This document shows, one piece after another, positions 4,966-22,456 of a stretch of 64,000 bases of DNA. This stretch comes from an uncultured Flavobacteriaceae bacterium (GTDB lineage: Bacteria; Bacteroidota; Bacteroidia; Flavobacteriales; Flavobacteriaceae), in the NCBI GenBank assembly GCA_964385175.1, contig CAYLNL010000001.1, positions 284,593-348,592 of the forward strand, in the 5' to 3' direction. How positions within the stretch are numbered: position 1 is the first letter of the stretch; each line of letters starts with the position of its first letter. The notes beneath the pieces are model-generated. The model did no database searches, was not told the origin of the DNA, and was given only the letters and a program-made list of their open reading frames with translations. Both the position numbers and the translations under genes were made by a program.

Positions 4966-4980
4966 ACCGCCGCAGAATTT

Positions 4981-5135
4981 CCCCTGCTCCCGAAGTCTCC
5001 CGACTTCGGAACCCTCGTGTACCCGCTCCCGCGCAGGCGCGTGCCTGTATGTGCGCGGGTACGGGCACGAGCGTGACGCGTGCGCCGGTGAGAGTGAGGG
5101 AGTGGTACGAGCCAGAAGGCTCACACCGGCGAGAG
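4981..5135 (+). repeat. GC-rich mosaic hairpin repeat, copy A (modules M1-M2-M3-M5)
   Basis: M1 is CCGAAGTC-TCCC-GACTTCGG (4990-5009). M2 is CCCGCGCA..TGCGCGGG. M3 is CACGAGCGTGACGC. M5 is GTACGAGCC-AGAA-GGCTC. The same modules recur at eight or more other gaps. Confidence 0.9.
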
Positions 5136-5284
5136 GAATGTTTATTCCTGCTGTACCTTCGTGAAGCCGGACAAAATATTAGCGGCAAGCCACTGTCTGT
5201 GACAGCACTCACTTTTGGAATTTTAAGAAAAACACTTAAATTCATACATTTGCAACCTATAAGAATACACAACTATCAAGACAG

Positions 5285-6517
5285 ATGAGTAAAATAAAAA
5301 TAAAAAATTTTGGGCCGATTAAAGGCGGATTGGGTGATGATTGGATTGATATCAAGAAAGTGACTGTTTTAATAGGGAATCAAGGAAGCGGGAAAAGTAC
5401 TGTTGCAAAATTGATTTCAACTTTCTCTTGGATTGAAAAAGCTCTATACAAGCAAGGGATTAAGAAAGAAGATGTCAAAAGAAAATCTAAATTTGAAAAC
5501 TATTATTGTGAATACCAAAACTTAAAAAACTATTTTAAAAATGACAGTGAGATTGAATTTGAAGGAGATAGTTTTAAGTTCACTTATAAAAGGGGAAGAT
5601 TGTCAATAGACGAAACAAAGGGTGGGAAGTATTTAGTTCCCAAAATAATGTATGTACCAGCAGAAAGAAACTTTGTCAGTGCTGTTTCTCAACCAGAAAA
5701 ACTTAAATATTTACCCAAGACGTTATACACTTTCTTGGAAGAATACGAACGTTCTAAGGAGGAACTTTCTGATAATTTAGATATTCCAATCAATAATCTA
5801 AAATTTCAACACGATAATAGAAAAGGAGAGTCTAAGATAATAGGAGAAGATTATGATTTGCTTTTATACCAAGCTTCAAGTGGTTTACAATCTGCAATTC
5901 CTCTTTTTTTAGTATCTAAAAATCTGAGTGAAGGCATTGATAGAGCATCCGACAATTCTAAAAGCAAAATAAGTTTGGAAGAAATGCAAAAACTTAGAGA
6001 TAGAATTTTAATGATATTAAGAAATGAAAAGCTAACTGACGATTTGATGAGAAGTCAGGCTGTTGAATTGCTTTCTTCCATTACTAAAAATGATTGTTTT
6101 ATTAATATTGTTGAAGAGCCAGAGCAAAACTTGTTTCCTTTGTCGCAATGGGAAATGCTGAAAAAGCTTCTGGAGTTCAGTAATTTCAATCAGGGGAACA
6201 AATTAATAATGACTACCCATAGCCCCTATTTAATAAACTATATCAGTATTGCAATCCAAGCTGAATATTTGAAAAACAAGATTGAAGAAAATATCAATGC
6301 CACTGTTTTAATCAATAAAATCGAAAAAATCATCTCTCAAAAAGCGCTTGTTTCCGCTTCTGATGTTGTTGTTTATCAGCTTGACGAAACAAATGGAATA
6401 ATTAAAAAATTGCCAACAACAGAGGGGATACCTTCAGATAATAACTATTTAAATGAATCACTACGACATTGCAACGAAATGTTTGATAATCTTTTAGAGA
6501 TAGAACAGGAATTATGA
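5285..6517 (+). CDS. ABC/SMC-like AAA ATPase (AAA_15/AAA_21-type), defence-type
   Basis: Walker A GNQGSGKST, signature-like QASSGLQS, Walker B CFINIVEEPEQNLFP, H-loop MTTHSPY. AT-rich. Its stop overlaps the start of the next ORF (ATGA). Confidence 0.8.
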   Translation: MSKIKIKNFGPIKGGLGDDWIDIKKVTVLIGNQGSGKSTVAKLISTFSWIEKALYKQGIKKEDVKRKSKFENYYCEYQNLKNYFKNDSEIEFEGDSFKFTYKRGRLSIDETKGGKYLVPKIMYVPAERNFVSAVSQPEKLKYLPKTLYTFLEEYERSKEELSDNLDIPINNLKFQHDNRKGESKIIGEDYDLLLYQASSGLQSAIPLFLVSKNLSEGIDRASDNSKSKISLEEMQKLRDRILMILRNEKLTDDLMRSQAVELLSSITKNDCFINIVEEPEQNLFPLSQWEMLKKLLEFSNFNQGNKLIMTTHSPYLINYISIAIQAEYLKNKIEENINATVLINKIEKIISQKALVSASDVVVYQLDETNGIIKKLPTTEGIPSDNNYLNESLRHCNEMFDNLLEIEQEL

Positions 6518-7014
6518 GTTTGAATTTTTTCAAGGCCGATTGCCAGTATCAACCTATTACGTCAGCTATATTCGGCCTATGTGACAATCAAGATGATACA
6601 AAGGCCTTTCCTGATACAGATGTTGCAAATCAAGAATCACAATGGATAGCCATAGTTAAAAACGAGAAAAAATTTTCAGTGGTATTTACTGCTATTGACA
6701 AATGTGTTTTACAAAATAATGAGGAGGTGGGTAAAGGTAGGTGTGATGGAATGCTTACAACTTGTAATCACTTATATTTAGTTGAACTTAAGAATCAGAA
6801 GGAAGATTGGCAAACTGATGCAAAGAATCAGCTCCTTTCTACAATTGATTTACTAATAGCGAACCACGACATAACCCGGTACAAAAAGAAAAAAGCCTTT
6901 GCTTGTAACAAACGAAGAAAAAAGTTTGCTGAGATAGACAACGAGGAGAATTTAATATTGTATAGAAAGACGGGGTTTAGAATTGATATTCAAGCAGAAA
7001 TTGTGGTTATTTAA
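6514..7014 (+). CDS. Small PD-(D/E)xK-like predicted nuclease, partner of the ATPase
   Basis: Motif RCDGML-x-LYLVELKNQK (D-x12-ExK) after beta-strand-like segments. Translationally coupled to 5285..6517. Confidence 0.55.
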   Translation: MSLNFFKADCQYQPITSAIFGLCDNQDDTKAFPDTDVANQESQWIAIVKNEKKFSVVFTAIDKCVLQNNEEVGKGRCDGMLTTCNHLYLVELKNQKEDWQTDAKNQLLSTIDLLIANHDITRYKKKKAFACNKRRKKFAEIDNEENLILYRKTGFRIDIQAEIVVI

Positions 7015-7027
7015 TATTAGGGACATA

Positions 7028-7136
7028 TCTCCCTGCCCCGTTCCCCGAAGTCTCCCGGTTTCGTAACTAAAACAAAAACCTCCCGCGCAGGCGCGCCTAT
7101 ATACGCGCGGGCGCAGGTGCACGAGCGTGACGCTCA
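7028..7136 (+). repeat. GC-rich mosaic hairpin repeat, copy B1 (M1-M2-M3)
   Basis: CCCGAAGTCTCCCGGTTTCG, then AAAACAAAAACC, then CCCGCGCAGGCGCG..CGCGCGGG, then CACGAGCGTGACGC. Confidence 0.9.
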
Positions 7137-7143
7137 CAAATAC

Positions 7144-7276
7144 CATCCCGCTCCCCGAAGTCTCCCGACTTCGGAACCTCGCGTACCCGCCCTCACGCGC
7201 AGGCGCGCGCCTGTACACGCGCGGGCGCAGATGCACGGACAAATACTACCCGAAAGGGATTGTGGGGTAGCGGGGA
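7144..7276 (+). repeat. GC-rich mosaic hairpin repeat, copy B2 (M1-M2-M6), in tandem with B1
   Basis: CCGAAGTCTCCCGACTTCGG, then CACGCGCAGGCGCGCGCCTGTACACGCGCGGG, then TACCCGAAAGGGATTGTGGGGTAGCGGGG. Confidence 0.9.
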
Positions 7277-7278
7277 CA

Positions 7279-7629
7279 TTATTTTTCTTTGTCAATTATC
7301 CGGTCAATCTGGATTTTGTTCCCTGGTAAATAATTGGTAGCTACATCCCAAATTATCTCATAATCAACTCCAAAATATTCATGTGAAACCCTGTTTCTCA
7401 AGTAGTACATTTCTTTCCATGGAATATCAGGATACTTTTCTTTTATCCTTTCATCTAAGTTTTTAGAGGCCTCACCTATTATTTCAAAATTCCTGATAAC
7501 TGCGTCAACTGTTTTATAATCCCTTTTGAAATGCTCGAAATCATATCCTTTGATATATTCAGCAATCCGACTCATCGCTGTTTGGATGTCATCAAGGAAC
7601 ATTCTGTGACTACGTTCTTCTTTTCTCAC
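7279..7629 (-). CDS. hepT: HepT-type HEPN (DUF86) RNase toxin
   Basis: Rx4H motif in YLRNRVSHEYF and a typical DUF86 N-terminus (FLDDIQTAMSRIAEYI). Directly downstream of the MNT gene. A GTG start lies at 7629 and an alternative ATG at 7602. Confidence 0.85.
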   Translation of the reverse strand: MRKEERSHRMFLDDIQTAMSRIAEYIKGYDFEHFKRDYKTVDAVIRNFEIIGEASKNLDERIKEKYPDIPWKEMYYLRNRVSHEYFGVDYEIIWDVATNYLPGNKIQIDRIIDKEK

Positions 7630-7630
7630 A

Positions 7631-7921
7631 TTATACGTATTTTACCTGATTTAAAATCCTATCCTTTATTTGTTCCTTTAATGCGTTTTTGGTCACTAAA
7701 TCAATCTTTCGCCCAAAAATATTCTCAAGATAAATTTCTAAGGAAAAATATTTCCATCCGATAGGTTTTTCAAATTCAACAAGTAAATCAATATCACTAT
7801 CATCTGTATTTGAATCATCAGAAAATGAACCAAATAGCCCAATCTGCTTAACAGCGTATTCCCGGTATAAAACTGGCTTTAAATCGCTCAACGTATTCAA
7901 TATGTCATTCCTGGTAATCAT
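7631..7921 (-). CDS. mntA: MNT-type nucleotidyltransferase antitoxin
   Basis: GLFGSFS...DSDIDLLVEF (GS-x-DxD polymerase-beta-type NTase motif). I take the ATG at 7921; the ORF track extends to a TTG at 7945. Confidence 0.85.
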   Translation of the reverse strand: MITRNDILNTLSDLKPVLYREYAVKQIGLFGSFSDDSNTDDSDIDLLVEFEKPIGWKYFSLEIYLENIFGRKIDLVTKNALKEQIKDRILNQVKYV

Positions 7922-8026
7922 AATCCAAATATATAACTTTTTCAAGTTACATAGGAATCTGTCTTTCTAAGCATGCCCTACAACTTGTTGATATGGCAAC
8001 TATACCCAAAACCTTTTACTTAACAT

Positions 8027-8187
8027 TCCCCCACTCCGCAAAGGCTCCCGGTTTCGGAACGAAAACAAAAACCGCTCGCGCGCAGGGGCGCCTGCGCGCA
8101 TGGGTACGCGCACGAGTGTGGCGCGGGCGCTGGTGAGAAGGAAATAATATCTTGCAAAGCCGGGAGACGTTGCGGGGCGGAGGGAGC
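8027..8187 (+). repeat. GC-rich mosaic hairpin repeat, copy C (M1-M2-M3-M4)
   Basis: CCGCAAAGGCTCCCGGTTTCGG..AAAACAAAAACC..CGCGCAGGGGCGCC..CACGAGTGTGGCGC..GAGAAGGAAATAATATCTTGCAAAGCCGGGAGACGTTGCGGGGCGG. Confidence 0.9.
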
Positions 8188-8215: not shown

Positions 8216-9094
8216 TTAGCGGTTGTGCTTCTGTTCCATCTGTGCGAATAAGTCAATGGCCTGCTCCAGAATTGTATGGTGGTGTCCGTTGCCATTCGCT
8301 TTTTTCTGTTGAATGAAGTCAAGGCGGTATTCGTTTTTAATTTTTCCGTGGTTGTCAAACCTGTCAAGTATCATTTTATAATATTCGGGGTGAAGTTCGC
8401 AACTGATAAAGTTCCTCTTTAAACTTTTGCAAAGCACCAATTCACTGCCACTGCCGCCAAACAAAATAAAACAGTCGTCATTTTCCTGTGTGCAAGATTT
8501 AATCAGCATCTCAACAAGTGGCAAAGGAATTTGGCAGGCATGAAAAGTTTTATCCTTGCTCACATTTTTTACAAGGTCAAAATAAAACCAACTGTAAGGC
8601 ATCCTACCTAAGTGTCCGTTTGCAATTCTACTTTGTATGCGTTTGTCTGTGGGGTTTTGATAAGGAACGGCAACATTGTCTTTGTAAAAATTATTCTTCT
8701 TTGATTTTGTTGCATGAAGAATGGAACGGTGTCCGGTGGTAAATCGTCTTGGGCTGTGTCCAACATTAGTATTGTAAACCCATACATAGTCCTGAACATC
8801 ATAGGCCACTTCATCTAAATACTTAACTCGCAAATGAGCATTCTGCTTCGGATAATTCATCATAAATAAATTACCTGTCGGCTTCAAAACTCTCATGCAT
8901 TCTTTTGTGAGTTGAATATACCAATCAATATACTCGTTCCATTTTGTGGTGTAGTTTTTCCCTGCGTAGTTAATGCCCACATTGTAGTCAGGGTCACCAT
9001 AAACCATATCCAAGCTACCATCGGGCAGTTTAGATAAAACCTTTAAAACATCTTCGTTGAAGACCTTGTTGCGGAATTTATTTAGTGTCTCCAT
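8216..9094 (-). CDS. DNA methyltransferase (beta-class N6-adenine or N4-cytosine)
   Basis: Motif IV variant GDPDYNVG lies near the N-terminus and motif I FGGSGSE near the C-terminus, which is the beta-class order. Confidence 0.8.
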   Translation of the reverse strand: METLNKFRNKVFNEDVLKVLSKLPDGSLDMVYGDPDYNVGINYAGKNYTTKWNEYIDWYIQLTKECMRVLKPTGNLFMMNYPKQNAHLRVKYLDEVAYDVQDYVWVYNTNVGHSPRRFTTGHRSILHATKSKKNNFYKDNVAVPYQNPTDKRIQSRIANGHLGRMPYSWFYFDLVKNVSKDKTFHACQIPLPLVEMLIKSCTQENDDCFILFGGSGSELVLCKSLKRNFISCELHPEYYKMILDRFDNHGKIKNEYRLDFIQQKKANGNGHHHTILEQAIDLFAQMEQKHNR

Positions 9095-9788
9095 TTTGTA
9101 AATAAGGATTTAAGTATTTCTGAAGCTCCGTATGAGAGAGAATACAAATTCCTCTTGTCTTTGAAAATATTTGAATTGTCTGTGTAATTAATTTTACATC
9201 AATCACACTTTTGGTTTCCGTCTTGTAAATTATGTCCTGAATGAAACTGCTAATCAGAAGTGGAGCACTGATGACAGTTAAAATTGTATTTACTCTGCCG
9301 ACCTTTGCATTTCGTGTTTTGAAGTCAGGTTTATTATCTGTGATGTGATATTTTACATCTTCATTCCAGCTTAGCAAGCCAATGAAGTGAAGATATTCCA
9401 ACAAGCTGATTTCTTTATGGTCAATAAGAAAACAAATCCTATATAACAGCACCAAAACTTTTTTAAAAGTAAGTTGAATGATAATTGAAATTTTAATGAG
9501 GTATTCCCAAATTTTATCAAATGTCCAACTATCTGTTTCGCTTATGTTGTCTTTGCCAACATTGGGAAATATGTCGTGAATGTTTGGATTTACTCGTAGT
9601 GTTTCCTTCCATGGTTTGAAAAAGTATGCCTCTTTCTGATTGGGCAAAGTAGGAATCAAATGTTTATTCGGTTTTGCTATCGTCCCCCGAACAAATGCCA
9701 TTGCCTCTTCAATCCGCATCTCTCGCTGCTTAATAAATTCGCGTGTGCTTCTAAATATCCTGGTTGTTATTATTTCTTGTTGAACCAT
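9078..9788 (-). CDS. Hypothetical protein; candidate cognate type II restriction endonuclease by position only
   Basis: Its 3' end overlaps the methyltransferase start by 17 nt on the same strand. I recognise no motif. I take the ATG at 9788; a TTG at 9812 is also possible. Confidence 0.35.
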   Translation of the reverse strand: MVQQEIITTRIFRSTREFIKQREMRIEEAMAFVRGTIAKPNKHLIPTLPNQKEAYFFKPWKETLRVNPNIHDIFPNVGKDNISETDSWTFDKIWEYLIKISIIIQLTFKKVLVLLYRICFLIDHKEISLLEYLHFIGLLSWNEDVKYHITDNKPDFKTRNAKVGRVNTILTVISAPLLISSFIQDIIYKTETKSVIDVKLITQTIQIFSKTRGICILSHTELQKYLNPYLQNGDTK

Positions 9789-9885
9789 TATTAATTCAAA
9801 ATTATTCGTCAAACTTAGTCAAAAAAACGGTTGGATTTATGCACACACGTTCAAGTGAGCGAGCGAAGCAGGATTGCCGCTAACG

Positions 9886-10040
9886 ACCCCTGCTGCCCGA
9901 AGTCTCCCGGCTTCGGGGCTAAAACAAAACCCGTTCCTGTGCAGGCACGCGCCTATGCGCACGTGGGAATGGGTGTGACGCTCGCGCCGGTGAGAAGGAA
10001 ATAGTATCTCGCAAAGCCGGGAAACTTTGCGGAGTGGAAA
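9886..10040 (+). repeat. GC-rich mosaic hairpin repeat, copy D (M1-M2-M3-M4); a detached M6 lies at 10165-10193
   Basis: CCCGAAGTCTCCCGGCTTCGGG..AAAACAAAACC..GTGCAGGCACGCGCC..GTGTGACGC..GAGAAGGAAATAGTATCTCGCAAAGCCGGGAAACTTTGCGGAGTGG. Further on is TACCACCGGAAAGGATTCGGGCGGGAGC. Confidence 0.9.
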
Positions 10041-10230
10041 ATTCCCCGGCGTGCGCGAGTGCCCAACGCAACTCCCAGAAACAGCCGGTTTACCCTAAAT
10101 TAGTTTTTGGGACATTTGTTTCTGCTGCGTACTTTCGCAGAGTCGGATACGGAGAGTTATAACAATACCACCGGAAAGGATTCGGGCGGGAGCAGTGGCG
10201 GCGCTGATGAGAGTGGGGGAGTGGGCTTCG

Positions 10231-11232
10231 TTAATCTTCATCGTCCACAAGTCGCCAAAAGCGCTTTAACGGCAACTCGGCTTTAAACTCGTCACTAAAG
10301 TTGTCGTAGTGTTTGAATATATTTTCAAGAATGTCGTCCGCAGTCCACAAGCGAATAAAGAAGAACTCCTCTTTAGCTTCAGAAAGAACCTTGCTATTGA
10401 AACCGCTCCACGAAACAAGCAGTCCCAATTCTGCTTTTACTTTTCTCATTACACCTTGCAACTCACGGAGGATTTTTACATCAACTTGAGTTGTCGTAGA
10501 TTTTACTTGAACACAAATTCTCGGTTGCTCAAAACCTAAAGTCCCAGAAGCTGCAAGAATGTCAAGTCCACCGTCTGCACCAGGCGGTGAAAGTTGTGTC
10601 GTGTAACCTTGTGCTTTTAGAATTTGCTCTACAAGTTTTGCGAAGTCGTGTCCTTTGAACTTACGGTCAATTACTTTTATTATTTGGTCTTTGGCGAAAC
10701 GCTCAACATTAAAATCTTCTTCTGCTTCCAATGAAATAGTGTTGGTTTTTTGTGTCGGGATTGTTTTGCCCTCTATCAAAGCAAGAATTCTCTCTACTGC
10801 TTGCACTCTTGAAACTTGTGAAACTGTCAGTAAAGAGCCAAAGGAATACAAAATGTCTTGGTCAAATCTTACTCGGGGAATTGTCGCTAACCACTTAACA
10901 GGTCGCCAATGAATAACGTCCGCTTTCTTTTCGTATTTGTAGTCGCCAGTAACTTTGCCAATGTGAATTACAGGTTGAAACTTTGAAGGAAGTGCAACAA
11001 GGTCTCCGTTTGCGATTTCGTTTTTAAACCGCCAAATCTGTCCAACAGTAATACCAATTTTCACATTGCTTGTCTGCTCGTAGAGTTCTTGATACTTGTC
11101 AAAAAGGTCGTCCCTTGTTTTGAACTGTGTCAAGTCAGGCAGGTCGTCCCAACCGATTGTGATAAGTTTTTCGTCAAGGCAAGTTTGTTCTTGCTGTCCG
11201 TGCCGCCCTGCTCTAACTGTCCATAGTTTCAT
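10231..11232 (-). CDS. Mrr-cat family restriction endonuclease with an N-terminal putative reader domain (type IV-like)
   Basis: C-terminal GGLDILA...ICVQVKS (D..QxK Mrr catalytic core). The N-terminal ~150 aa (KLWTVRAGRHGQ..GDLVALP..IHIGKVTGDYKY..WRPVKW) resembles small beta-barrel reader domains. Confidence 0.7.
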   Translation of the reverse strand: MKLWTVRAGRHGQQEQTCLDEKLITIGWDDLPDLTQFKTRDDLFDKYQELYEQTSNVKIGITVGQIWRFKNEIANGDLVALPSKFQPVIHIGKVTGDYKYEKKADVIHWRPVKWLATIPRVRFDQDILYSFGSLLTVSQVSRVQAVERILALIEGKTIPTQKTNTISLEAEEDFNVERFAKDQIIKVIDRKFKGHDFAKLVEQILKAQGYTTQLSPPGADGGLDILAASGTLGFEQPRICVQVKSTTTQVDVKILRELQGVMRKVKAELGLLVSWSGFNSKVLSEAKEEFFFIRLWTADDILENIFKHYDNFSDEFKAELPLKRFWRLVDDED

Positions 11233-11438: not shown

Positions 11439-11935
11439 TTAGGTCAAGGAACATTGGAATTTAATGTCTAACTCGTCAATAAATTGGAAGTCGTTTATCC
11501 ATCTAATTCCCATGTTGTCACAAACGTTGGGTATTTTTATTTTATTCGAGTTTAAAGCGGTTACTTTTTCTTCTTTGGTAACGATAATCGCATTTTCGTG
11601 TAAAGCATGAGCAATAACCCAAGGGTCAGCTAATGAACGAGTTTTGTATTATCGACTAACAGCGGATAATCTTGTAAAATTTTACGAATGTGTATTGTAA
11701 CGGATTCGCTAATTTTATTGATTGGGATTTTGCTCCCTTTCAACCATTTTGAGAGGTCGTCTTCTGTCCGAATGATTTCTTCGTAAACCAATTCAGGAAC
11801 AAAAATCTTTCCGTTTTTTCCGAGTTCGGTTAAGATTTTCCAATAATCAGGGCAAAATTTTGGGTTGTAGTATTTTTGCCATGCTTGGATTAACACATTG
11901 GCATCCAAACAATATTTGTTTGCCTTTGTGCTCAT
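11439..11935 (-). pseudogene. DUF4411-type PIN-like protein, split by a frameshift near 11630
   Basis: The 101-aa ORF (CLDANVLIQAWQKYY...) stops at TAG 11630-11632. The next frame (11439..11630) reads ADPWVIAHALHENAIIVTKEE..KIKIPNVCDNMGIRWINDFQF, the expected C-terminal half. Together they give ~164 aa. Confidence 0.7.
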
Positions 11936-13110
11936 CTAAATAATTGGGATTCGAGTTTTGGAAATTTATTTACTTGAACATTTAACAGATTACTGGCTAA
12001 TGTAGGCTCGATAAATCCACCACGAAATGCATCTAAAACAGTTTGAGTAAATAGTCTGCTATTTCTGTTTAGTTGTAACAAAAAGTAATTCGGTCCGCCT
12101 GATTTATCCTTTTCTTTTTGCTTGGCTTTATTTTCGGCTTCTCTTTTCGAATATTCGGCATAATCGATGTCAGCTTGTTTTTTTAACTTCTGATATGTTG
12201 GTGTCGGAATAATATTAAGATTCAATGCACGAACTAAGAGAGCAAATGAACTTACACCTAATTGCTTTGCAACCTTGAAAACATCTTTAGAGGTTTGAAA
12301 AGAAGTTGAATCAAAACTCAAAACAATTTCTTTTGGCATTAAAGCATTTGCCGCAACTTCATTGCAGAATAATTCTACTGGATGAAACTTGTCTTTGTGT
12401 TTTATGTCGGGCTCAACTTCATTTGAAATGCCTGTTTCAGCTATCCAAATGTGAGCTAACTCATGAACAAGTGTAAATAATTGTGGTGCATTCCAATCGT
12501 CCGAGTTTACAAAAACGAAAGGTGCGTATGGGTCAGCAATTGCAAAACCTTGCAACTCTTCCGAATCTAGTTTAAGACGGGAGTGAATAAAACTTGTTCT
12601 TGAAACAAAAATGCTATTCGTTTCTGCTGCATCAATCCATTCTTTAATTGGGTTGTCTGTCTTGTAGGATGCAGGATTTATTTTTAATGTATCAAGAATG
12701 TCTTTTGCTACAGTTTGAGGATTATCCTTTATTGAATAGCGACCTACAAAAGCTAATTTGTCTTCTTGATTTTCTGAATAAACATCGCTTATCCAAGCTT
12801 GCTTTTGTTGGATTTCTCTGATGATAAAAATTGAAGATGTTGTCAGATTTTTTGAGCCTGATTTTCTGAAGTCTTGAAGTGGCTGAAAGTCACGAGGAAC
12901 ATCTGGTAAAAAGAATAAAGCAAATGGTCTTTTATAAGCTTTAGCAAGCGTTTGTGCTTGTCTTATTGTCGGATGATTTGTCCCTGCTTCCCACTCTTTC
13001 AATTTGTCAACCGTTACGGAAACTTTGGCAGCAGCAGTTTCTTCGGTCATTCTTGCCGATTCTCTTGCCCATTTAAGAACATTTGGTGTTATGTATGCTT
13101 TGTCTGCCAT
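11932..13110 (-). CDS. XRE-HTH plus ImmA/IrrE (COG2856) zinc metallopeptidase fusion
   Basis: N-terminal HTH (LKWARESARMTEETAAAKVSV) and the HExxH motif LVHELAHIW. Its stop overlaps the start of the DUF4411 gene. Confidence 0.85.
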   Translation of the reverse strand: MADKAYITPNVLKWARESARMTEETAAAKVSVTVDKLKEWEAGTNHPTIRQAQTLAKAYKRPFALFFLPDVPRDFQPLQDFRKSGSKNLTTSSIFIIREIQQKQAWISDVYSENQEDKLAFVGRYSIKDNPQTVAKDILDTLKINPASYKTDNPIKEWIDAAETNSIFVSRTSFIHSRLKLDSEELQGFAIADPYAPFVFVNSDDWNAPQLFTLVHELAHIWIAETGISNEVEPDIKHKDKFHPVELFCNEVAANALMPKEIVLSFDSTSFQTSKDVFKVAKQLGVSSFALLVRALNLNIIPTPTYQKLKKQADIDYAEYSKREAENKAKQKEKDKSGGPNYFLLQLNRNSRLFTQTVLDAFRGGFIEPTLASNLLNVQVNKFPKLESQLFR

Positions 13111-15146: not shown

Positions 15147-18100
15147 TTATGGGAGCGATTGTACCCAATGATTAAGCCGCGCGGGAACAACGGTAAATTT
15201 TATATTCCGCCCGGCGCCGCCTACGCTGGCTCTAATTATATTTTGTATTTCGGCAGGAACAGGAATAGGGGTAACGATGTGAAAATCTAGGTCCCATACT
15301 TGTTGCCAAACATCCATTCCCTGCCGCCCAACACGTTCGCTAAGGATGTTGTATTGTATTTGCCGTCCTTTTTCGATGGAATTTACTGCCTGCCGAACCC
15401 GGTGTGTAACTGTATCTACATCTTTTAATATATTTCCCAGTTTCCCGCCTTCCTGTGGCCAAAAAGTCCAGTACTTAGAATCGGCGCCTTTTAAATCACT
15501 CATACACAAATGGTCGGCTTCGGGGGCTACTGTTTTTTTCTCAGCCACTTTAAATTTGTCGCCCCAACGGGTCTGGCGGTAAGGGGTATGTATTTCCCGT
15601 TTGGTTACCCCTGCCCAGGCGCTATCCGTAGCTGCCAAATCGGCTTCTGCCTGTACCTGGTATAAGTCGGTTGACTTCCTGCCCCCGAACTTGTCGTTTT
15701 GGGCTGGGAGGATTCCTTCATCCATCATTTTACTCAATTGTTGCTTTTCTAAATTTCTGCCTATGTACAGTTCGTTCAGCCTGTCCACGTGCATGGCATG
15801 CCGGGTTCTTGCGCTTTGTAGTTCCTGTCTTCGCAAATCAAGGCTCTTTTCCTGTCGCACCATCCCGCGTTCCCATGATTGCATCTCCTGGGTAACGGCT
15901 TTTAAAGAAGGGTCATCTGCCCGGCGTTGTATTTCGGCTTTTAATTTCTCTTTAGTGGCTTTTATGTCGTCTTCGAGTTTTGTGATTCGTTGTTCAAGAG
16001 ATTCTATATCATCTAACGCTTTTTGCGCCTGGCTGAGGATTTTCTGTTCTGCCTTAACGCTTTTACTGAAGAGGCTGGCCATTTGGGAGCGCAGTTGCCG
16101 GCAGGTTGCTGCCTGTATTGAGAAAATATCTTCTAAGTAGGCTCTTTCCATGGTGGTTGCATACCAATCTAAATGGTTAATCGCCTGCCGTTCTAATGCT
16201 CTGGCGGCTTTGGCATATCTTCTAAAAGCAAGTCCAAGAGGCAATAGTGAGGCAACAACCACGGCGCCTCCTGCAAGCCGCTCCAGCATACTAACTTTCC
16301 TGCCCTCCAGGTCTCGTCCTGTGTAGGCTGTGTAAGCCCCGATATGGGGGGCGGCAATGATTTCTACCGCGGTAGAGAGCATAATCCAATAATTTCTGTC
16401 ATATCGTTCCCGCGCTGTAATGCTGATGACTGTATCAATTTCTTCGGCTTCTTTTTTACAGGTATACATTATCCTGGTGTTTTTGAGAGCATTCGGCATT
16501 TTGTGCACCGTAACGGGAATTTCTTCCATAGCGCCCAACTCTGCAACCGGGAGTTCTAAAAGTTCTAAGTATTTATGGGTAATGGCAATGGGTAGTTCAT
16601 ACACAGGGTGAGGTTCATCTAACCAGGCAATGGCATTGGCAATCATTCTTCCCTTCAGGTGCAATTCCCGTTGTTGTTCCTGGGAAAGCCCTTCTGCCTG
16701 CCGGGTTTTGAGGTTCACCTGGCGAAGCGTGTTTAGTAGAGGGTATAGTTGTGCGTTTTGTCCTCTCAAAGCATCTTTGTACACCGGAACTTCTACCTGG
16801 TGCTGCTGGAAGCGTAAGACCACCTTATCGCCATCTTCCCGATAAATTGCTTCCCAGGGTTCTTTACTTTCATAGGAACCTTTTTTGTATGTTTCGGGGA
16901 GTTCCCATTCATGGCTATCTTCCTTAGGGTCGATTACCGTTACAGGCACTTTTCCCGATATTCCCCTTCCGTCTGCTCTTCCCGGCGCTACCCTAAAGGT
17001 GGTATTCTCTCCTTCTACAAGATAAACGGCGGGTTTAAACTCATGATTCAGAATGCTGAGATAGGTTGGGGCCACGAGGTCAACAGTAAATTCAATGGCT
17101 TCGGAAGAAACCAGGGGGGCGAGCGTTGCATCTTCCACAACAGGGAAAAGTTTATATTGGGTGGCGTGCAGCTGATCTGATAAGGGGAGTCCATCTTCTA
17201 CGGGGATAAACCCGCCAAAAGATGCTTCAAGGAATTTCAACTCGGTTACACCTTCTGCATCGGTAACAGTACAGGGCATACTTCCTTCAAAGTTTTCAAT
17301 GTGCCATGCTATGCGACAATTGGGTATAGGGTCGTCAAATTCGTCAATAACCCGTACCGAGAGCGCTCCGTGGATGCCCGCCTGGGGATCAATCACTACC
17401 TCCTGGGGGCCATTTCTCGTAATGCGAATGCCGGGTAAATCGGGAATTTCCGGCAGCTCTGGCCAGGAAATCAGAAATGTCTCAATAGTTTCATTCCATT
17501 GAAGGGTCAAAATTCCTTCAGCAGGTACTTGCATGCTGAGAATTCCAAGTAATGAGGCATATTCGGGCAGGACCAAATCAATTGGTTCGGAAAGATACAC
17601 GGTATCTGAACGGTAGGGTTGCAGTTTGACACTGAGGGAGCTTCCCGCTGTACTGCTGAGCATGACGGACACTTCTTGCAGGGGAGGTTTTTTAAAAACG
17701 GCCTTGACGCGAAGGAGCTCGTGAGGATGCAACCGGGTTACTGCTACCGATGGGTCTAACCTGGTGATGGAAAGAACAACATCTTGCTCTTCCTCTCTTT
17801 CATTGTCTTTTCTCAACCGTCTTTGCCTTAAACGCATCATGCCGTATGCAACCGCTCCGATACCTCCTGCCAGGGCTGCTATTCCAATGATTTTAACCCA
17901 CTTTCGGGAGCCGCTCCATGGAGTTCCCAAATTTCCCCAAAAAAATACGCGGGTTACCGGCAGTTCATTTCCTTTCCACTTGATTTCTAAGGAGGTAATT
18001 TTTGTAGCTCCTTCCGGGATAAGCATATTTCCATTGTAATCTAAGGTTTCCCCGTTGTTGAAATGGAGTTTAATATAGGCAACACTTTGTTCGGGATAGT

Positions 18101-18479
18101 CTAAATGTTGGCGCGCCAGGCGATAGGTAAGCCAGAAACGGTTTCCCAGGGGTTTATCTTCTAACACGGTAGCTGTTACCTGGGGGCTAATGGAAAGTCG
18201 CCTTCCCTGCGGGCTGTCATATAAATAGATAATGGGTTGTATGTGAATTTCTCCGCTGAAGTAAATTTCTCCTCCGTATTTTACATAAAAGCTCTGTTTG
18301 CTCAATGTTAGTGTATCGCGATTGCATTTCCAGGGACCGCCGCTTCGCTCGTGCAATACGAGGGAATCTTGCACCGGTTGCCCCACGGTATTTTCTATTG
18401 CCAGGCACCCAAGAAACACACACCAGCTCCAGGCAACGAAGTGTTGAGATAGTATGGCTTTAACTCCAAATTGTTTCAT
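15147..18479 (-). CDS. Large (1110 aa) membrane-anchored protein of unknown function
   Basis: Signal-like N-terminus, a TM helix (IIGIAALAGGIGAVAYGMM), Ig-like beta-rich middle, a hydrophobic TG-containing segment (AYTAYTGRDLEGRKVSMLERLAGGAVVVASLLPLG), a long coiled coil and a ~250-aa C-terminal domain. Its base composition looks closer to the core genes than to the neighbouring cassettes. Confidence 0.8.
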   Translation of the reverse strand: MKQFGVKAILSQHFVAWSWCVFLGCLAIENTVGQPVQDSLVLHERSGGPWKCNRDTLTLSKQSFYVKYGGEIYFSGEIHIQPIIYLYDSPQGRRLSISPQVTATVLEDKPLGNRFWLTYRLARQHLDYPEQSVAYIKLHFNNGETLDYNGNMLIPEGATKITSLEIKWKGNELPVTRVFFWGNLGTPWSGSRKWVKIIGIAALAGGIGAVAYGMMRLRQRRLRKDNEREEEQDVVLSITRLDPSVAVTRLHPHELLRVKAVFKKPPLQEVSVMLSSTAGSSLSVKLQPYRSDTVYLSEPIDLVLPEYASLLGILSMQVPAEGILTLQWNETIETFLISWPELPEIPDLPGIRITRNGPQEVVIDPQAGIHGALSVRVIDEFDDPIPNCRIAWHIENFEGSMPCTVTDAEGVTELKFLEASFGGFIPVEDGLPLSDQLHATQYKLFPVVEDATLAPLVSSEAIEFTVDLVAPTYLSILNHEFKPAVYLVEGENTTFRVAPGRADGRGISGKVPVTVIDPKEDSHEWELPETYKKGSYESKEPWEAIYREDGDKVVLRFQQHQVEVPVYKDALRGQNAQLYPLLNTLRQVNLKTRQAEGLSQEQQRELHLKGRMIANAIAWLDEPHPVYELPIAITHKYLELLELPVAELGAMEEIPVTVHKMPNALKNTRIMYTCKKEAEEIDTVISITARERYDRNYWIMLSTAVEIIAAPHIGAYTAYTGRDLEGRKVSMLERLAGGAVVVASLLPLGLAFRRYAKAARALERQAINHLDWYATTMERAYLEDIFSIQAATCRQLRSQMASLFSKSVKAEQKILSQAQKALDDIESLEQRITKLEDDIKATKEKLKAEIQRRADDPSLKAVTQEMQSWERGMVRQEKSLDLRRQELQSARTRHAMHVDRLNELYIGRNLEKQQLSKMMDEGILPAQNDKFGGRKSTDLYQVQAEADLAATDSAWAGVTKREIHTPYRQTRWGDKFKVAEKKTVAPEADHLCMSDLKGADSKYWTFWPQEGGKLGNILKDVDTVTHRVRQAVNSIEKGRQIQYNILSERVGRQGMDVWQQVWDLDFHIVTPIPVPAEIQNIIRASVGGAGRNIKFTVVPARLNHWVQSLP

Positions 18480-18804
18480 ATCGGTTGTATTTTAGTTATT
18501 GGTTGTAAAAAAAACCTGAACAGGGTGTATTGGGTGGTTGCATTTTTTCGGTTTTTCAATTTTAACTGCTTCTACCCTTTTCTCTCTGCAAATCTCCTGG
18601 GAACCTGTTAGACAACTTATAGAAGCTTCTCAAAAATACTAAAAAAATTGATGTTCTCCTTTCATAAAGATTCCTGGCTATGCGCCATAGCTTGCTTGCT
18701 TTTCTCTTCAAAGAAAACAGGGGTTCCCCGGCGCACGGGGAGGAAAGCTATGTTAGTAACAGGTGGTAGTAGCCAGGGGGCTTGCAGCGGCGGGAGGCTC
18801 CTTT

Positions 18805-19434
18805 TCAGCGCTCTTTATGCAGCGTTCTAAGATAGAAAGAACATATCACTATCCAGGCAAGTATAGAGCCTTCAATAATCCGTTGATAGAGCCCGACAAC
18901 TTTTGAATGCATGTTAGATGATAAAATACTAACCAATAGAATAGCGGTCAATCCGCAAACAATGCCTGAGTATGATACATATTTTCCATTTGTCCATTTT
19001 CTGGCTACAATTCCAAGAACCAGTAAACAGATGGGAACTATCATGTATGTCAATAGCCCCATGAGGTTATGAATTAACTGCGAAAGGCTTGGGTGAACCA
19101 ATTCTTTGTTGCAACCTTTGTCGCATGGAAAAAAACTAACCATACTTGTTGTAACCCCGTAAAATACTCCAAGTCCTGCAAACCCTAATTTTGTAAGAGT
19201 AGATTTTGGTACTGCCCTTGCTGCATAAAATGCAAAGACGGCAATAAATATCCCGCCAGGCAAAAAGCCTAAATATCTAAGTTGAGGACCATAAGGTGTC
19301 CCAATAGCGTAGGATTCGCTAATGAGTTGAGAAATATGGCTATAATCTGAAAATTGTAGCCCACCCAGGATAGCTGCTGAAATAAAAAACAATACCCCCA
19401 TACATCCAAACCACGATGCTTTCATTCCGTTCAT
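18805..19434 (-). CDS. DUF998-like multi-pass membrane protein
   Basis: About six hydrophobic helices and the motif YSHISQLISES typical of DUF998. Confidence 0.6.
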   Translation of the reverse strand: MNGMKASWFGCMGVLFFISAAILGGLQFSDYSHISQLISESYAIGTPYGPQLRYLGFLPGGIFIAVFAFYAARAVPKSTLTKLGFAGLGVFYGVTTSMVSFFPCDKGCNKELVHPSLSQLIHNLMGLLTYMIVPICLLVLGIVARKWTNGKYVSYSGIVCGLTAILLVSILSSNMHSKVVGLYQRIIEGSILAWIVICSFYLRTLHKER

Positions 19435-19567: not shown

Positions 19568-19762
19568 TCCCCACCCACCTCGCTCTCCTAAATCTCCCAA
19601 CTTCGGAACTAAACCAAAAACCGCTCTCACGTGCGGGAGCGCCTGTATGCGAGCAGGCACGCGCGCTCGCGACCGCGGGAGAAATAGTCTCATACAAAGC
19701 CAGGAGACTTTGCGGAGCGGGAGGGGGTAAATACCACACGAAAGGATTTGTGCGGTAACAGG
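19568..19762 (+). repeat. GC-rich mosaic hairpin repeat, copy F (M1-M2-M4-M6)
   Basis: CCTAAATCTCCCAACTTCGG..AAACCAAAAACC..GTGCGGGAGCGCCTGTATGCGAGCAGGCACGCGCGC..GAGAAATAGTCTCATACAAAGCCAGGAGACTTTGCGGAGCGG..TACCACACGAAAGGATTTGTGCGGTAAC. Confidence 0.9.
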
Positions 19763-19769
19763 GAATGTT

Positions 19770-20210
19770 TCATAACTGTATGCCCCATGTTTTAAACTCG
19801 TTTACTTTAACTAAAAACATCATGGTATTACTCCCTAAATCGCCGCCGTTAACGCCACTTCTCCAGTAATTTTTGTTTTCTAAAAGTTCTTTTTTCAGGC
19901 GATTTGTCTCGATCATGTAAAAAACACCTGCAAATTTATACACCCAATAATCTGCTTTGGTAACCGAAATGCCGGTTGCTTTTTTTCTCGATTCATACTC
20001 AACAGCCACATTCCCGGTTTTTTCGGCCATCAAATCGTTTTTTACTTCAAAAGTCAAATTCTTTGAAACAATTTTAATATCATAATCTTTGATGGCCGAT
20101 TTTTCAATGTCGGGTTCCTGAACATTAAAATGCTTCTTCAATAATTCTTTTACTTCATCTTCGGCTTTTAAACCATCTTCTAAATCTTTGTCAAAATTAT
20201 AGTGTGCCAT
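19770..20210 (-). CDS. Small PD-(D/E)xK-like predicted nuclease (146 aa)
   Basis: An acidic helix (EDGLKAEDEVKELL), then DYDIKIV and TFEVKND (D-x10-ExK). AT-rich. Preceded, in the sense direction, by the 6-unit tandem repeat. Confidence 0.6.
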   Translation of the reverse strand: MAHYNFDKDLEDGLKAEDEVKELLKKHFNVQEPDIEKSAIKDYDIKIVSKNLTFEVKNDLMAEKTGNVAVEYESRKKATGISVTKADYWVYKFAGVFYMIETNRLKKELLENKNYWRSGVNGGDLGSNTMMFLVKVNEFKTWGIQL

Positions 20211-20225
20211 TTTCTAAATTTTAGC

Positions 20226-20317
20226 TCACCCGCACAGGCGTTGCGCGTGCACGCGCGGGTACACGCACACGGGCAGGTAACGATACGGTACGAGCCCCGA
20301 AGGCTCGTGTCAGTGGG
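20226..20317 (+). repeat. GC-rich mosaic hairpin repeat, copy G (M2-M5)
   Basis: CCCGCACAGGCGTTGCGCGTGCACGCGCGGGTACACGCACACGGGCAGGTAACGATACGGTACGAGCCCCGAAGGCTCGTG. Confidence 0.9.
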
Positions 20318-20560
20318 GAGAATAGTATTGTGCAAAGCCAGGAGACTTTGCGAAGCGGTGAGAATAGTATCGTGCAAAGCCAGGAGACTTTGCGGAGCGG
20401 GAATAGTATTGTGCAAAGCCAGGAGACTTTGCGAAGCGGTGAAATAGTATCGTGCAAAGTCGGGAGACTTTGCGGAGCGGGAATAGTATTGTGCAAAGCC
20501 AGGAGACTTTGCGAAGCGGGGGGATAGTATCGTGCAAAGCCAGGAGACTTTGCGAAGCGG
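20318..20560. repeat. Tandem array of six ~40-42-bp units of module M4 (each holds the hairpin GCAAAG-CCAGGAGA-CTTTGC)
   Basis: Units start at 20318, 20360, 20401, 20441, 20481 and 20521. The TATTG..GCGAAGCGG and TATCG..GCGGAGCGG subtypes largely alternate. There are no unique spacers. Confidence 0.95.
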
Positions 20561-20568
20561 GGTGGGCA

Positions 20569-21387
20569 TTAGAATGTCTTATATTTTTTGGATTCCTCAA
20601 TTCCTTTTTTAATCTCCTCTTTTGTTCTGTAGTCACCAGGTATGTCTGGTAAATATGTCGGAAGTGTCGCAAATCTTTGGTAATGGTCAGTCCATTCATC
20701 ATACTTATAATCTGCAAAATGAGTTATCTCTGTCAGTCGTTTGTCTGGTGGTTTAGAATCAATTGTCAAAACGAAACCAAATGGTGGAAATGTAATCTCC
20801 GAAAGTTTGGATATGCTATTTATATCAATCTGCGCTAAAACACTGTATCCTATATATCTCTTATTACCCTGAATGTTGTAATAGCAAAAAAGTCTATATT
20901 TTTTTGAAAGAAATCTCGTTTCCTTGTTTTTTACAAACTTAACCAATTCGGGTTCAACCTCTCTGAAACTATCTGGATTAACAGAGAAAAACATAGTTAC
21001 AATTTGTTTGATTGTTCGCAACGGATAAAAAAAAGTTGGATAGTATAAACTTGGTTGTCCCTTAGTTTTCTGCAAAATACTCATTGCTTGCCATGCCCAA
21101 CTCACAAAAGCATGTCCATACCAACTCCCAGTTTCATTGTTACATCTTTCGCATAGACTGTAGAAACCAATCCCTCCTTGTTTCTTTTTTGAATATCCCT
21201 TCTCATAAATTTGGCTGATTGTTAAATCAAAAAAATTGTCTTCAAATTCAATTAACTTATCAAATTCCAGTTGGTAAAAATATCGTTGATTATTAAATGC
21301 TTTCTCAGGTGGAACATGTTCATAACTTAGTTGTCCATAGTATCCACATATTTTACATTTTCCGAACAGTTTTTTTCTCCGTCCCAT
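20569..21387 (-). CDS. HNH-family endonuclease-like protein with an uncharacterised C-terminal domain
   Basis: CKICGYYGQLSYEHVPPEKAFNN and LCERCNNETGSW (Cys pairs flanking an EH..N core). Single-gene, AT-rich cassette. Confidence 0.65.
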   Translation of the reverse strand: MGRRKKLFGKCKICGYYGQLSYEHVPPEKAFNNQRYFYQLEFDKLIEFEDNFFDLTISQIYEKGYSKKKQGGIGFYSLCERCNNETGSWYGHAFVSWAWQAMSILQKTKGQPSLYYPTFFYPLRTIKQIVTMFFSVNPDSFREVEPELVKFVKNKETRFLSKKYRLFCYYNIQGNKRYIGYSVLAQIDINSISKLSEITFPPFGFVLTIDSKPPDKRLTEITHFADYKYDEWTDHYQRFATLPTYLPDIPGDYRTKEEIKKGIEESKKYKTF

Positions 21388-21424
21388 TTATCGTTATTAT
21401 CCTGAAGAATTTTAGACAGTGTTA

Positions 21425-21506
21425 CCCCCGCGCAAGCCTGCGGGTACACGCACACAGGCAGGTAACGATACGGTACGAGCCAAAAGGCTCGCAACAGCGA
21501 GGGGGT
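21425..21506 (+). repeat. GC-rich mosaic hairpin repeat, copy H (M2-M5)
   Basis: CCCGCGCAAGCCTGCGGGTACACGCACACAGGCAGGTAACGATACGGTACGAGCCAAAAGGCTCGC, nearly identical to copy G. Confidence 0.9.
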
Positions 21507-21515
21507 AAACTATTT

Positions 21516-22214
21516 TTAAATATTTAGATCAGCCCTTATACTTGAATATTTGTTTATCCAATTTTCTATTGTGTTTACGCACGTAAAATAATTATTTGTA
21601 AATGTCTCAAAAGAGAGGTCTTCATGAGTTTTGTACCAGCCATCGAGGCTTGATATATTTCCAACATTTTTGTTGATACTTAATTTTATGTTTTCATTTT
21701 CATAGGTTTTATTACCAGTAACGCCTTCTAAATAAGTAATTGATATAAATTCAAGTCTTTTGGATATTTCTTTAGGCATATAGATATTTGAACACATTAA
21801 ATTCATTTCTTTAAAATATGTATTTAATTCCTCTATAGAAAAAACAACATAAGCCTTTGGATTCAAAGTTTCATTAAGGCGATTTACCTCTTCTTGGTTT
21901 ATCATAACGCTACATATTGACATCTTTCTTTCCTCTCTATTTTCATAGCTTACTATTATCTGTGTGGATTTAATTTTTTCCAATAATTTTAGCACTATGT
22001 CTAATTTTTTTTCGAAAATGATTTTTCTGTACCCAAATCTATCATAAATCAAAATAGCAATTATTAAGGTTATAAATGAGGTTGTAGTTAGAAAAATATC
22101 CTTTAGGATATTAGAGTTAAACGAATTATTTGAAATTAATAGGGTCATTATAACTCCGATATAAAAAAGAATTAGAATCGCTACTACAAGTGAATTTATC
22201 CTTTCAATTTTCAT
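21516..22214 (-). CDS. Hypothetical protein with two N-terminal TM helices and a soluble C-terminal domain
   Basis: Hydrophobic segments LVVAILILFYIGVIMTLLI and TTSFITLIIAILIY. Very AT-rich. I recognise no motif. Confidence 0.6.
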   Translation of the reverse strand: MKIERINSLVVAILILFYIGVIMTLLISNNSFNSNILKDIFLTTTSFITLIIAILIYDRFGYRKIIFEKKLDIVLKLLEKIKSTQIIVSYENREERKMSICSVMINQEEVNRLNETLNPKAYVVFSIEELNTYFKEMNLMCSNIYMPKEISKRLEFISITYLEGVTGNKTYENENIKLSINKNVGNISSLDGWYKTHEDLSFETFTNNYFTCVNTIENWINKYSSIRADLNI

Positions 22215-22246
22215 TTTTATGATTTTTTAAAATAGCTGTCTTCATA

Positions 22247-22397
22247 CCCCCCGCTACCGCCCGAATCCTTTCGGGTGGTAGTTACAATCCCCCCGCACGC
22301 GTGCCCGCTCTCCCGCGTGTGCACGCGCGGCTACACACCCGCGCAAGCGCCCACGCCCGTACCCCACGCTGGTGCGAACCTCCCGGCTCGTACCGCA
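22247..22397. repeat. GC-rich mosaic repeat, copy I (inverted M6, then M2-like and inverted M5-like)
   Basis: GCTACCGCCCGAATCCTTTCGGGTGGTA is the reverse complement of M6. GTGCACGCGCGGCTACACAC matches copy G. It ends with CCCGGCTCGTACCGC. Confidence 0.75.
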
Positions 22398-22456
22398 AAT
22401 CCATGTTATTCAACCCCTCAAAAATAGTAAAAACCGGCTTTTCCCCATCGCAACGG

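Follow-up and report, generated by a model that had tools for sequence, protein, structure and literature searches.

GC-rich intergenic mosaics in a flavobacterial defence island probably belong to a known kind of extragenic palindrome

The window, a stretch of 64,000 nucleotides (64 kb) from an uncultured bacterium of the Flavobacteriaceae, contains an island of eleven units of one or two genes each, located between tolC (3556-4965, + strand) and feoB (22593-24665, - strand). Most of the gaps between the units of the island (4966-22456) carry GC-rich modular repeats, here called mosaics. The original prediction, made from the letters of the sequence, likened this array to a sedentary integron or to a cluster of attC sites lacking an integrase (CALIN), or else to a distinct capture system without a recombinase. 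The results described below probably call for another reading, in which the array is not an integron and the repeats are members of the family of repetitive extragenic palindromes (REPs) and bacterial interspersed mosaic elements (BIMEs) with its REP-associated tyrosine transposases (RAYTs), concentrated in a hotspot of defence and toxin-antitoxin (TA) genes.

Organization of the locus

The number of units between the TolC stop codon (4965) and the FeoB-associated open reading frame (ORF), about eleven in the original prediction, was counted as eleven. One unit is on the + strand (5285-7014) and the ten consecutive units that follow (7279-22214) are all on the - strand, as had been stated. The cargo genes have a GC content of 37%, compared with 45% for the remaining genes of the window and 62% for the mosaics, which bears out the claim that the cargo is richer in AT than the core. 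Single cargo genes span 26-41% GC, and the exception is the gene at 15147-18479 with 47.6%. The cargo was also rightly described as being of the defence or toxin type: the Pfam and PADLOC matches are to defence and TA families, and five proteins are without an informative match (15147-18479, 18805-19434 with DUF998, 19770-20210, 20569-21387 and 21516-22214). The unit at 8216-9812 is probably a type II restriction-modification pair, of which the 244-aa protein (9078-9812), without a match in Pfam, PADLOC or NCBIfam, would be the nuclease. The stretch between tolC and feoB is thus best read as a variable hotspot of the ordinary kind, in which AT-rich defence and TA genes have been acquired horizontally.

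The closest named homologues of the two flanking proteins are from Robertkochia, with 58% identity for TolC and 74-76% for FeoB; the TolC match assigns the organism to the Flavobacteriaceae. No tRNA is present in the 64-kb window. Recombinase domains (tyrosine recombinase, integrase and transposase, including DDE) were found in none of the window ORFs that were tested by Pfam or covered by the precomputed annotation of identical contigs. The absence of integrase, transposase and tRNA from the window, noted originally, thus stands for the ORFs checked. The Rfam models gave nothing at the gathering score in the window and nothing at E<=1 in the island.

Exact Bacteroidota -7 boxes (TAnnTTTG) precede the units starting at 5285, 13110, 14748, 18479 and 19434. 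The boxes were called by consensus matching only, and they are positioned between the mosaic and the start codon. At least five of the eleven units therefore carry a putative promoter box of their own, and the description of the units as promoter-poor ORFs holds only in part. The features of the island and its flanks are listed in Table 1.

Table 1. Genes, repeat mosaics and other elements of the tolC-feoB island (CM, match of the covariance model described in the text; fold z, z-score of folding)
Feature	Position	Strand	Remarks
TolC-family outer membrane protein, left core flank	3556..4965	+	Pfam OEP
Mosaic 1	4981..5140	+	REP type A (tag CCCCTGCT and hairpin CCCGAAGTC-TCCC-GACTTCGG), GC-rich centre (module B), inverted type C REP (GGTACGAGCC-AGAA-GGCTC...GGCGAGAGG); CM 4979-5018, 28.8 bits
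Candidate defence system PDC-M29A (AAA_15 ATPase) and PDC-M29B (PD-(D/E)XK-like)	5285..7014	+	PADLOC, E 2e-170 and 9e-69; TACATTTG box at -40
Mosaic 2	7036..7275	+	Tandem A-B units 7036-7134 and 7146-7237; inverted type E REP 7241-7275; between convergent genes; CM 7034-7073 and 7144-7183; single-stranded DNA fold z -2.0
HepT/MNT toxin-antitoxin pair	7279..7945	-	Pfam HepT-like, NTP_transf_2
Mosaic 3, REPIN-like	8029..8185	+	Left tag-hairpin pairs with right inverted hairpin-tag; GC-rich centre; CM 8145-8184
N6/N4 DNA methyltransferase (N6_N4) and overlapping 244-aa protein	8216..9812	-	Pfam
Mosaic 4, REPIN-like (A ... inverted D)	9888..10040	+	CM 9886-9925 (+) and 10002-10041 (-)
Orphan cassette leader	10046..10150	+	85% identical to L157 428-531, directly upstream of PDC-M29; next to mosaic 4
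Type E REP (TACCACCGGAAAGGATTCGGGCGG) and G-rich tail	10166..10225	+	5 nt from Mrr stop
Mrr_cat nuclease, PADLOC candidate PDC-S02	10231..11232	-	E 4e-130
DUF4411 (PIN-like) and HTH-ImmA/IrrE (RmrA-like) pair	11630..13110	-	Pfam, PADLOC; TATTTTTG box at -16
Distinct GC-rich element with strong structure, other than REP type A	13180..13400	-	Half copy 19505-19533
425-aa HEPN(Swt1)-like protein	13471..14748	-	Weak Pfam and PADLOC matches; TATATTTG box at -61
Mosaic 5 (A-B-inverted C)	14905..15063	+	CM 14904-14942; fold z -2.7
1110-aa protein without informative match (15147-18479, GC 47.6%) and DUF998 membrane protein (18805-19434)	15147..19434	-	Single type C REP between the two genes
Single type C REP	18762..18802		Inside gap 18480-18804
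Mosaic 7 (A-B-inverted D and type E REP)	19578..19765	+	CM 19685-19724; ends 4 nt from next stop codon
146-aa protein	19770..20210	-	No family match
Mosaic 8 (B-like and C modules, then six tandem REP copies in the same orientation)	20225..20565	+	Period 39-41
272-aa protein	20569..21387	-	No family match
Mosaic 9 (B-like and C)	21425..21508	+
232-aa protein, 26% GC	21516..22214	-	No family match
Mosaic 10 (E, B-like, C), inverted relative to the others	22248..22395	-	Conserved in strain 2; short-read contigs end inside
FeoB with its associated Cys-rich membrane peptide of 43 aa; core flank on the right	22460..24665	-

Structure of the repeat mosaics

The recurrent unit of the mosaics consists of an unpaired tag, (CCC)CGCT, followed by a core hairpin of about 10 bp with a TCCY loop. 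Three hairpin types (A, C and E) have the tag in common. On the strand that bears the tag, type A reads CCC(C)GCT-CCCGAAGTC-TCCC-GACTTCGG, type C reads ...CGCTG-TTGCGAGCC-TTTT-GGCTCGTAC, and type E reads CCCCCGCT-ACCGCCCGAATCC-TTTC-GGGTGGT. The module designated D is type A in the reverse orientation. The usual plan of a mosaic is a left tag-hairpin, a GC-rich centre of 60-90 nt (module B) and a right inverted hairpin-tag. In mosaics 3, 4 and 7 one end is formed by a + copy and the other by a - copy, so that clustering in inverted doublets (REPIN) or in mosaics of alternating orientation (BIME) is present. As single-stranded DNA, mosaic 3 (8025-8190) forms one long hairpin closed by its ends, with a z-score of -3.7 and a stability attained by none of 200 shuffled sequences.

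Neighbouring mosaics resemble each other in parts. Over 129 nt, mosaics 1 and 5 are 76% identical, and mosaics 8 and 9 have a stretch of 42 nt in common that is 98% identical. The tandem copies of mosaic 8, each of about 40 bp, score 365-433 in Tandem Repeats Finder (TRF) and give six covariance model matches of 26.5-46.6 bits. This tandem (20320-20561) had been considered as a MITE (miniature inverted-repeat transposable element) of the Porphyromonas gingivalis BrickBuilt type; the candidate was dropped, the unit being the REP hairpin in tandem and the organism a member of the Flavobacteriaceae.

The modules occur in 10 of the 12 gaps of the island, and 0-0.03 matches to the module patterns are expected by chance. 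The gaps 11233-11629 and 13111-13470 are devoid of REP modules and have other GC-rich hairpins instead, while the gap 18480-18804 holds one module only. The statement that nearly every gap carries the same GC-rich modules is correct, with amendments for these three regions. The inversion of the last copy was recognized correctly, since mosaic 10 runs opposite to the others. In six of the - strand units the right end of a mosaic, or of a REP, is 0-7 nt from the stop codon.

Confinement of the repeats to the island

A search of the window with all mosaics (blastn-short) gave no match outside 4966-22456, the best having an E value of 0.12. A covariance model (R1) built exclusively from copies in other genomes produced 13 matches in the window (E<=0.013), all within 4979-20564, and the best match outside the island reached 10.6 bits (E 0.29). 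All REP copies of the window are intergenic and score 14-47 bits against this model of foreign copies. Of the 12 gaps in the island 10 contain a mosaic, and of the window's 17 remaining gaps with a length of 100 nt or more none does (Fisher p=3e-6). Short-read contigs from the strain of the window end within mosaics, which suggests that further copies exist elsewhere in the genome.

Exclusion of an integron and of other repeat systems

In a sedentary integron or CALIN the units would be promoterless cassettes ending in attC, captured by an IntI encoded elsewhere. The layout does resemble such arrays: ten small units share one orientation, a structured, imperfectly palindromic repeat follows each of them, and TA pairs are embedded in the array. 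The attC core sites are missing: no pair of R''(RYYYAAC) and R'(GTTRRRY) spaced as in attC (55-145 nt apart) occurs in the ten mosaic gaps, and the twelve gaps together contain two, against 0.56 expected, both in a gap free of mosaics. The remark that the repeats do not obviously match the attC consensus agrees with this. In addition, no tyrosine recombinase or IntI was found in the 64 kb, several units have -7 promoter boxes of their own, and the repeats are tandem or inverted arrays of several hairpins, unlike the single attC. They belong to a RAYT-associated REP family and in other genomes they occur singly beside core genes and in mosaics across the genome. An integron or CALIN is accordingly scarcely credible here, and the likeness proposed at first is abandoned for these reasons.

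Insertion of MITEs of a conventional (DDE) insertion sequence, repeated many times in a permissive region, would produce mosaics of 150-190 bp with terminal inverted repeats of about 25 nt, as are seen. Their flanks have no target-site duplications, sharing direct repeats only at the chance level of 2-4 nt; the ends form hairpins of their own, in which compensatory covariation is seen; no DDE transposase is found in the window; and the only gene that is repeatedly bracketed by the repeats is a Y1 RAYT gene. This origin is very improbable, slightly less so than an integron.

Noncoding mosaic repeat arrays at variable loci are also known from Neisseria, namely the dRS3/RS arrays of the neisserial intergenic mosaic elements (NIME), together with minimal mobile elements, in which units of 1-3 genes, including restriction-modification genes, alternate between conserved flanks without a mobility gene (PMC1797815). 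The NIME repeats are unrelated in sequence to those described here, which have a cognate HUH transposase family. The dRS3 motif (ATTCCC-N8-GGGAAT) has a single match in the window, with one mismatch and inside polA, consistent with chance. The exchange in Neisseria relies on natural transformation, unlike the present case, where transformation is not established for the organism. Membership in the integron/CALIN, DDE-MITE and NIME classes thus fails on the lack of attC pairs, the units' own promoter boxes, the lack of target-site duplications and the lack of dRS3.

The REP family in other Flavobacteriales

The 20-nt core pattern of type A was scanned against one genome per GTDB species. At least 118 stretches matched, nearly all from Flavobacteriales, with the consensus CCCGCTGCGCAAAGTCTCCYGACTTTGAGC. 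Chryseobacterium, Flavobacterium, Kaistella, Aquimarina, Maribacter and Polaribacter are among the genera of the matches listed. In 140 copies from other genomes, 90.5% of the stem cells are paired, and changes on both sides are found in five of the ten pairs (95 cells). This level of pairing and covariation was reached in none of 500 shuffles and was nowhere near attained by slid registers. The comparison of these copies indicates that the stem is maintained by structural selection. The GCT tag is conserved (85-87% for G, C and T, with a run of C before it) and yet unpaired. The type E hairpin is kept in Flavobacterium and Weeksellaceae loci (L009, L032, L076 and L107), with a compensatory change in the stem, and inverted doublets of CGCAAAGTC-type and CCGAAGTC-type arms recur in other genomes.

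Copies in other genomes are extragenic (10 of 147 are inside predicted ORFs), and at least one gene 3' end adjoins the REP in 92 of 98 cases. Accessory and housekeeping genes alike adjoin them, and the neighbours include genes for Val- and Leu-tRNA synthetases, citrate synthase, SAICAR synthetase, MeaB and endonuclease V. Repeats occurring equally often in core intergenic regions throughout the genome had been named as a finding that would speak against an integron-like array, and the housekeeping neighbours of the REPs are of this kind. A defence bias was not apparent among the neighbours elsewhere, only a handful of 106 matching PADLOC, and Y1 transposases (RAYTs) made up 9 of these 106. Carriage by viruses is rare, with two REP matches in 2.9 million viral contigs. 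A scan of metagenomes for the hairpin specific to the window retrieved only other organisms (GC 34-47%, plus chance matches of high GC), including the contig L143 described below.

The cognate transposase

Inverted copies of the REP, with the tags outermost, bracket ORFs for Y1 proteins in at least nine loci, namely the GTDB loci L017, L028, L035, L040, L044, L060, L072 and L120 and the contig L143. The proteins are 188-204 aa long, contain the motifs NHIH and YIH[LM]NP, and are 66-95% identical to each other. The metagenome contig L143 has two such ORFs, each bracketed by the exact window variant CCCGAAGTCTCCCGACTTCGG. The Y1 ORFs exceed the Pfam cut-off for Y1_Tnp. With an L143 ORF, the NCBIfam equivalog NF047646, "REP-associated tyrosine transposase", gives 87.6 bits (cut-off 80), and the IS200 model gives 24.6 bits (cut-off 55). 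Against the PDB, the best match of the RAYT profile is the E. coli TnpA_REP, 4ER8, and is weak; phmmer gave no match. A Y1 gene bracketed by REPs in this manner has the architecture of a REPtron.

The two ORFs of L143 (7173-9528) form tandem REPtrons, with 188-aa RAYT genes that are 95% identical and each lie within inverted REPs. Members of the RAYT family are normally present in single copy, and such a tandem pair is unusual. In L072 (e.g. 3333-3475 and 3806-3860), L036, L044, L035, L028 and L014, amplification of the REP has taken along the terminal ~35 nt of the RAYT gene (...NEFWKYSNYDE*), so that the copied unit includes the 3' end of the transposase gene in those genomes. The same ends beside REPs in L072 and L036 had been considered as arrays of immunity cassettes; the alignment of the RAYTs identified them as amplified RAYT 3' ends and the candidate was rejected.

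These relationships place the repeats in a kind of element that is already known, REP/BIME with RAYT, and not in a new capture system. The distinct recombinase-less system of the original prediction gives way to Flavobacteriales REPs whose inverted copies flank a RAYT elsewhere, once as the exact window variant. An "unknown capture system" is thereby replaced by a named one, in which the REPs form a family that is conserved across Flavobacteriales and has a RAYT of its own. The closest described system is that of REP/BIME/REPIN and RAYT (TnpA_REP) of Enterobacteria and Pseudomonas, and in Bacteroidetes subclass 2.6/Bertels group 5 (PMC6006769, PMC3333891, PMC3116915). The common features are extragenic palindromes that are short and GC-rich and bear a conserved, unpaired tag (here CCCGCT) next to the stem, the position at gene 3' ends, covariation of the stem, inverted pairs, mosaics of several REP types, and a Y1 HUH gene of ~190-200 aa within inverted copies. 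The mosaic centres differ from classical REPs in being long (60-90 nt), GC-rich and lineage-specific, while the hairpin core is conserved across the whole order. The mostly Bacteroidetes RAYT subclass 2.6 was reported to have "atypical secondary structures" on its flanks, of which the genome contains other copies (Quentin et al., PMC6006769). The hairpin sequence was found in no paper, and the searchable literature yielded no sequence-level description of this REP family. The IS200/IS605 elements and their non-autonomous derivatives (palindrome-associated transposable elements, PATEs) are similar in having a Y1 HUH enzyme that recognises subterminal hairpins and in lacking the terminal inverted repeats and target-site duplications of the DDE type. 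They differ in that the gene flanked by the present repeats in other genomes fits the RAYT equivalog and is without TnpB, and in that the hairpins occur dispersed, singly, in doublets or in arrays, and not as the ends of an element.

Several observations weigh against this assignment. The RAYT of the window's own organism has not been seen, none being present in the 64-kb window, and the REP copy counts for this organism cover these 64 kb only. The classical GTAG or CGTC tag is absent, the tag being CCCGCT; in the Bacteroidetes, as mentioned above, the structures were called "atypical" (PMC6006769). The distribution is extreme, since 17.5 kb contain at least 13 type A copies and the other 46.5 kb, two core TA pairs included, are free of them, and simple neutral accumulation fails to account for REPs restricted to the island. 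The pattern is the reverse of the Pseudomonas "REP desert" rule, the REPs being packed in an AT-rich defence hotspot and missing from ~46 kb of mostly housekeeping genes. A scan for terminator-like sites, which bears on the effects discussed below, found no overall excess (17 sites against 18 expected) and flagged two of the five mosaics in which a hairpin is followed by GGTTTTTGTTTT.

Strains and junctions

Contigs of the window strain from several samples keep an identical order of the units, and exact-protein look-ups for the Mrr, HEPN and 1110-aa proteins returned this same gene order and no other context. A second strain (strain 2; SRR30545106/7) has a TolC that is 99% identical and a nearly identical FeoB, and both boundary mosaics, 1 and 10, are present. 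Its contigs (L128/L129) are collinear with the window through mosaic 1, and the similarity ends a few bases from the outer tag, near 5135-5140. The contigs from the two sides both stop within the boundary mosaics. A relative with an 88%-identical TolC has no mosaic after tolC, and one with a 62%-identical TolC has housekeeping genes there.

The PDC-M29AB pair was found in two other contexts. In L157 (96% nucleotide identity) it lies behind a HepT gene and its homology to the window starts at 5142, which is the edge of mosaic 1. In L156 (78%) it lies behind genes for a sulfatase, a GH141 protein and a lipase. Of the ~105-nt leader that precedes the pair in L157, only the last ~30 nt recur before PDC-M29 in the window (5142-5172). 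The orphan copy of this leader beside mosaic 4 (Table 1) looks, from its sequence, like the scar of an earlier unit.

The sequence comparisons indicate that units move whole and that mosaic edges coincide with junctions, at the single junction position available. These data fit recombination at the repeats, and they equally fit a mosaic that is part of the conserved flank. The comparison with strain 2, of the kind that had been proposed as a check, located a breakpoint at the edge of mosaic 1, at one junction position only. The hotspot appears to be variable, as was envisaged, in that strain 2 diverges at the outer edge of mosaic 1 and PDC-M29AB occurs in two other contexts; an active part of the repeats in cassette turnover is hypothetical.

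Possible roles of the mosaics

By analogy with E. coli and Pseudomonas, a RAYT/TnpA_REP enzyme (Y1 HUH) encoded elsewhere in the genome would maintain and spread the REPs through single-stranded hairpins. The REP mosaics occupy the intervals that follow the genes downstream, in many cases 0-7 nt beyond a stop codon. On the - (coding) strand, mosaics 2a, 3, 4, 5 and 7 show a GC hairpin followed by GGTTTTTGTTTT, an arrangement that could terminate or insulate the unit upstream. The mosaics may also protect mRNA 3' ends, and they may supply dispersed homology for the gain, loss and swap of units by homologous recombination. A role of the mosaics as junctions or homology anchors in the gain and loss of units is, in our view, unlikely.

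In one form of this idea, the REP mosaics would be the working recombination sites of a cassette-exchange platform, at whose outer tag units are inserted, deleted and swapped through single-strand cleavage and joining of the RAYT type, a REP-targeting recombinase, or homologous or homology-facilitated recombination of resident with incoming mosaics. Its function would be like that of an integron or of the Neisseria minimal mobile elements. The similarity of strain 2 to the window breaks off a few bases from the outer tag of mosaic 1, both boundary mosaics being kept in that strain, and the PDC-M29 of L157 matches the window from 5142 with a different upstream neighbour, its leader fragment being orphaned beside another mosaic. 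The near-identity of parts of adjacent mosaics, the REP ends 0-7 nt from the stops of six units and the strict confinement of the mosaics to the island in the window also speak for it. The junction data concern one position, though seen from two sides, and divergence past shared sequence is expected under any mechanism. No type A REP borders the PDC-M29 cassette in L157 or L156, the order of the units is constant in all contigs of the window strain from several samples, the flanks of the mosaics have neither target-site duplications nor a conserved target motif, and the same REPs adjoin housekeeping genes elsewhere. RAYTs are not known to mobilise cargo genes. Such a platform is doubtful on balance, about as improbable as the anchor role itself. 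Somewhat less likely again is the version in which RAYT-associated mosaics are the junction elements of an integrase-free cassette exchange, units being joined or excised at the outer REP tag by HUH single-strand cleavage and ligation, or by recombination on hairpins conserved across the order.

REP mosaics that served as junctions or anchors would help to explain how defence islands are assembled without mobility genes, and the RAYT/REP systems would gain a role at the level of the host. The concentration of the REPs in the island and the coincidence of junctions are the remaining points of interest; those strain and cassette junctions that were recovered all lie at a mosaic edge. Because the mosaics break short-read assemblies exactly at defence islands, metagenomic surveys of defence genes would be biased.

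Other features of the window

The GC-rich element at 13180-13400, in one of the gaps without REP modules, folds as RNA with -101 kcal/mol (z -5.5) and contains a 20-nt inverted repeat, 95% complementary, at 13197-13216/13287-13306. It has no match in Rfam.

Two TA-type pairs are situated among the core genes without an adjoining REP mosaic, an MNT-HTH/HepT pair and a pair of DUF433 and DUF5615/PIN_10 proteins (28840-29704 and 45863-46932). The Cys-rich membrane peptide of 43 aa (MSYLQPLLAYTALLLAIGFLVKKFLLPKKKPAKGCGKKDCGCH; 22460-22591, - strand) is encoded directly downstream of feoB and is kept in strain 2, as read from the translation of the alignment. In the window, polA (25815-28650, - strand) is split, its two parts (25815-27731 and 27616-28650) being ORFs that overlap and differ in frame. 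An intact PolA of 944 aa is encoded in the contigs L001 and L158, whose FeoB is identical or near-identical, and the split has the look of a frameshift, or of an indel error in the sequence of the window.

A second, AT-richer cluster of intergenic repeats is found at 61129-61573, where three copies of the hairpin AGCCGATGGTTTCAACCGTCGGCT alternate with repeats of the GAACCAAGA type and with a TTTGTGCTCTTTGCGGTAAAAAATAGAACC module. It may represent another REP-like family. In addition, a direct repeat of 253 nt, 88% identical (61557-61809/62860-63112), spans the starts of small ORFs with signal peptides (MKKLLFVL...).

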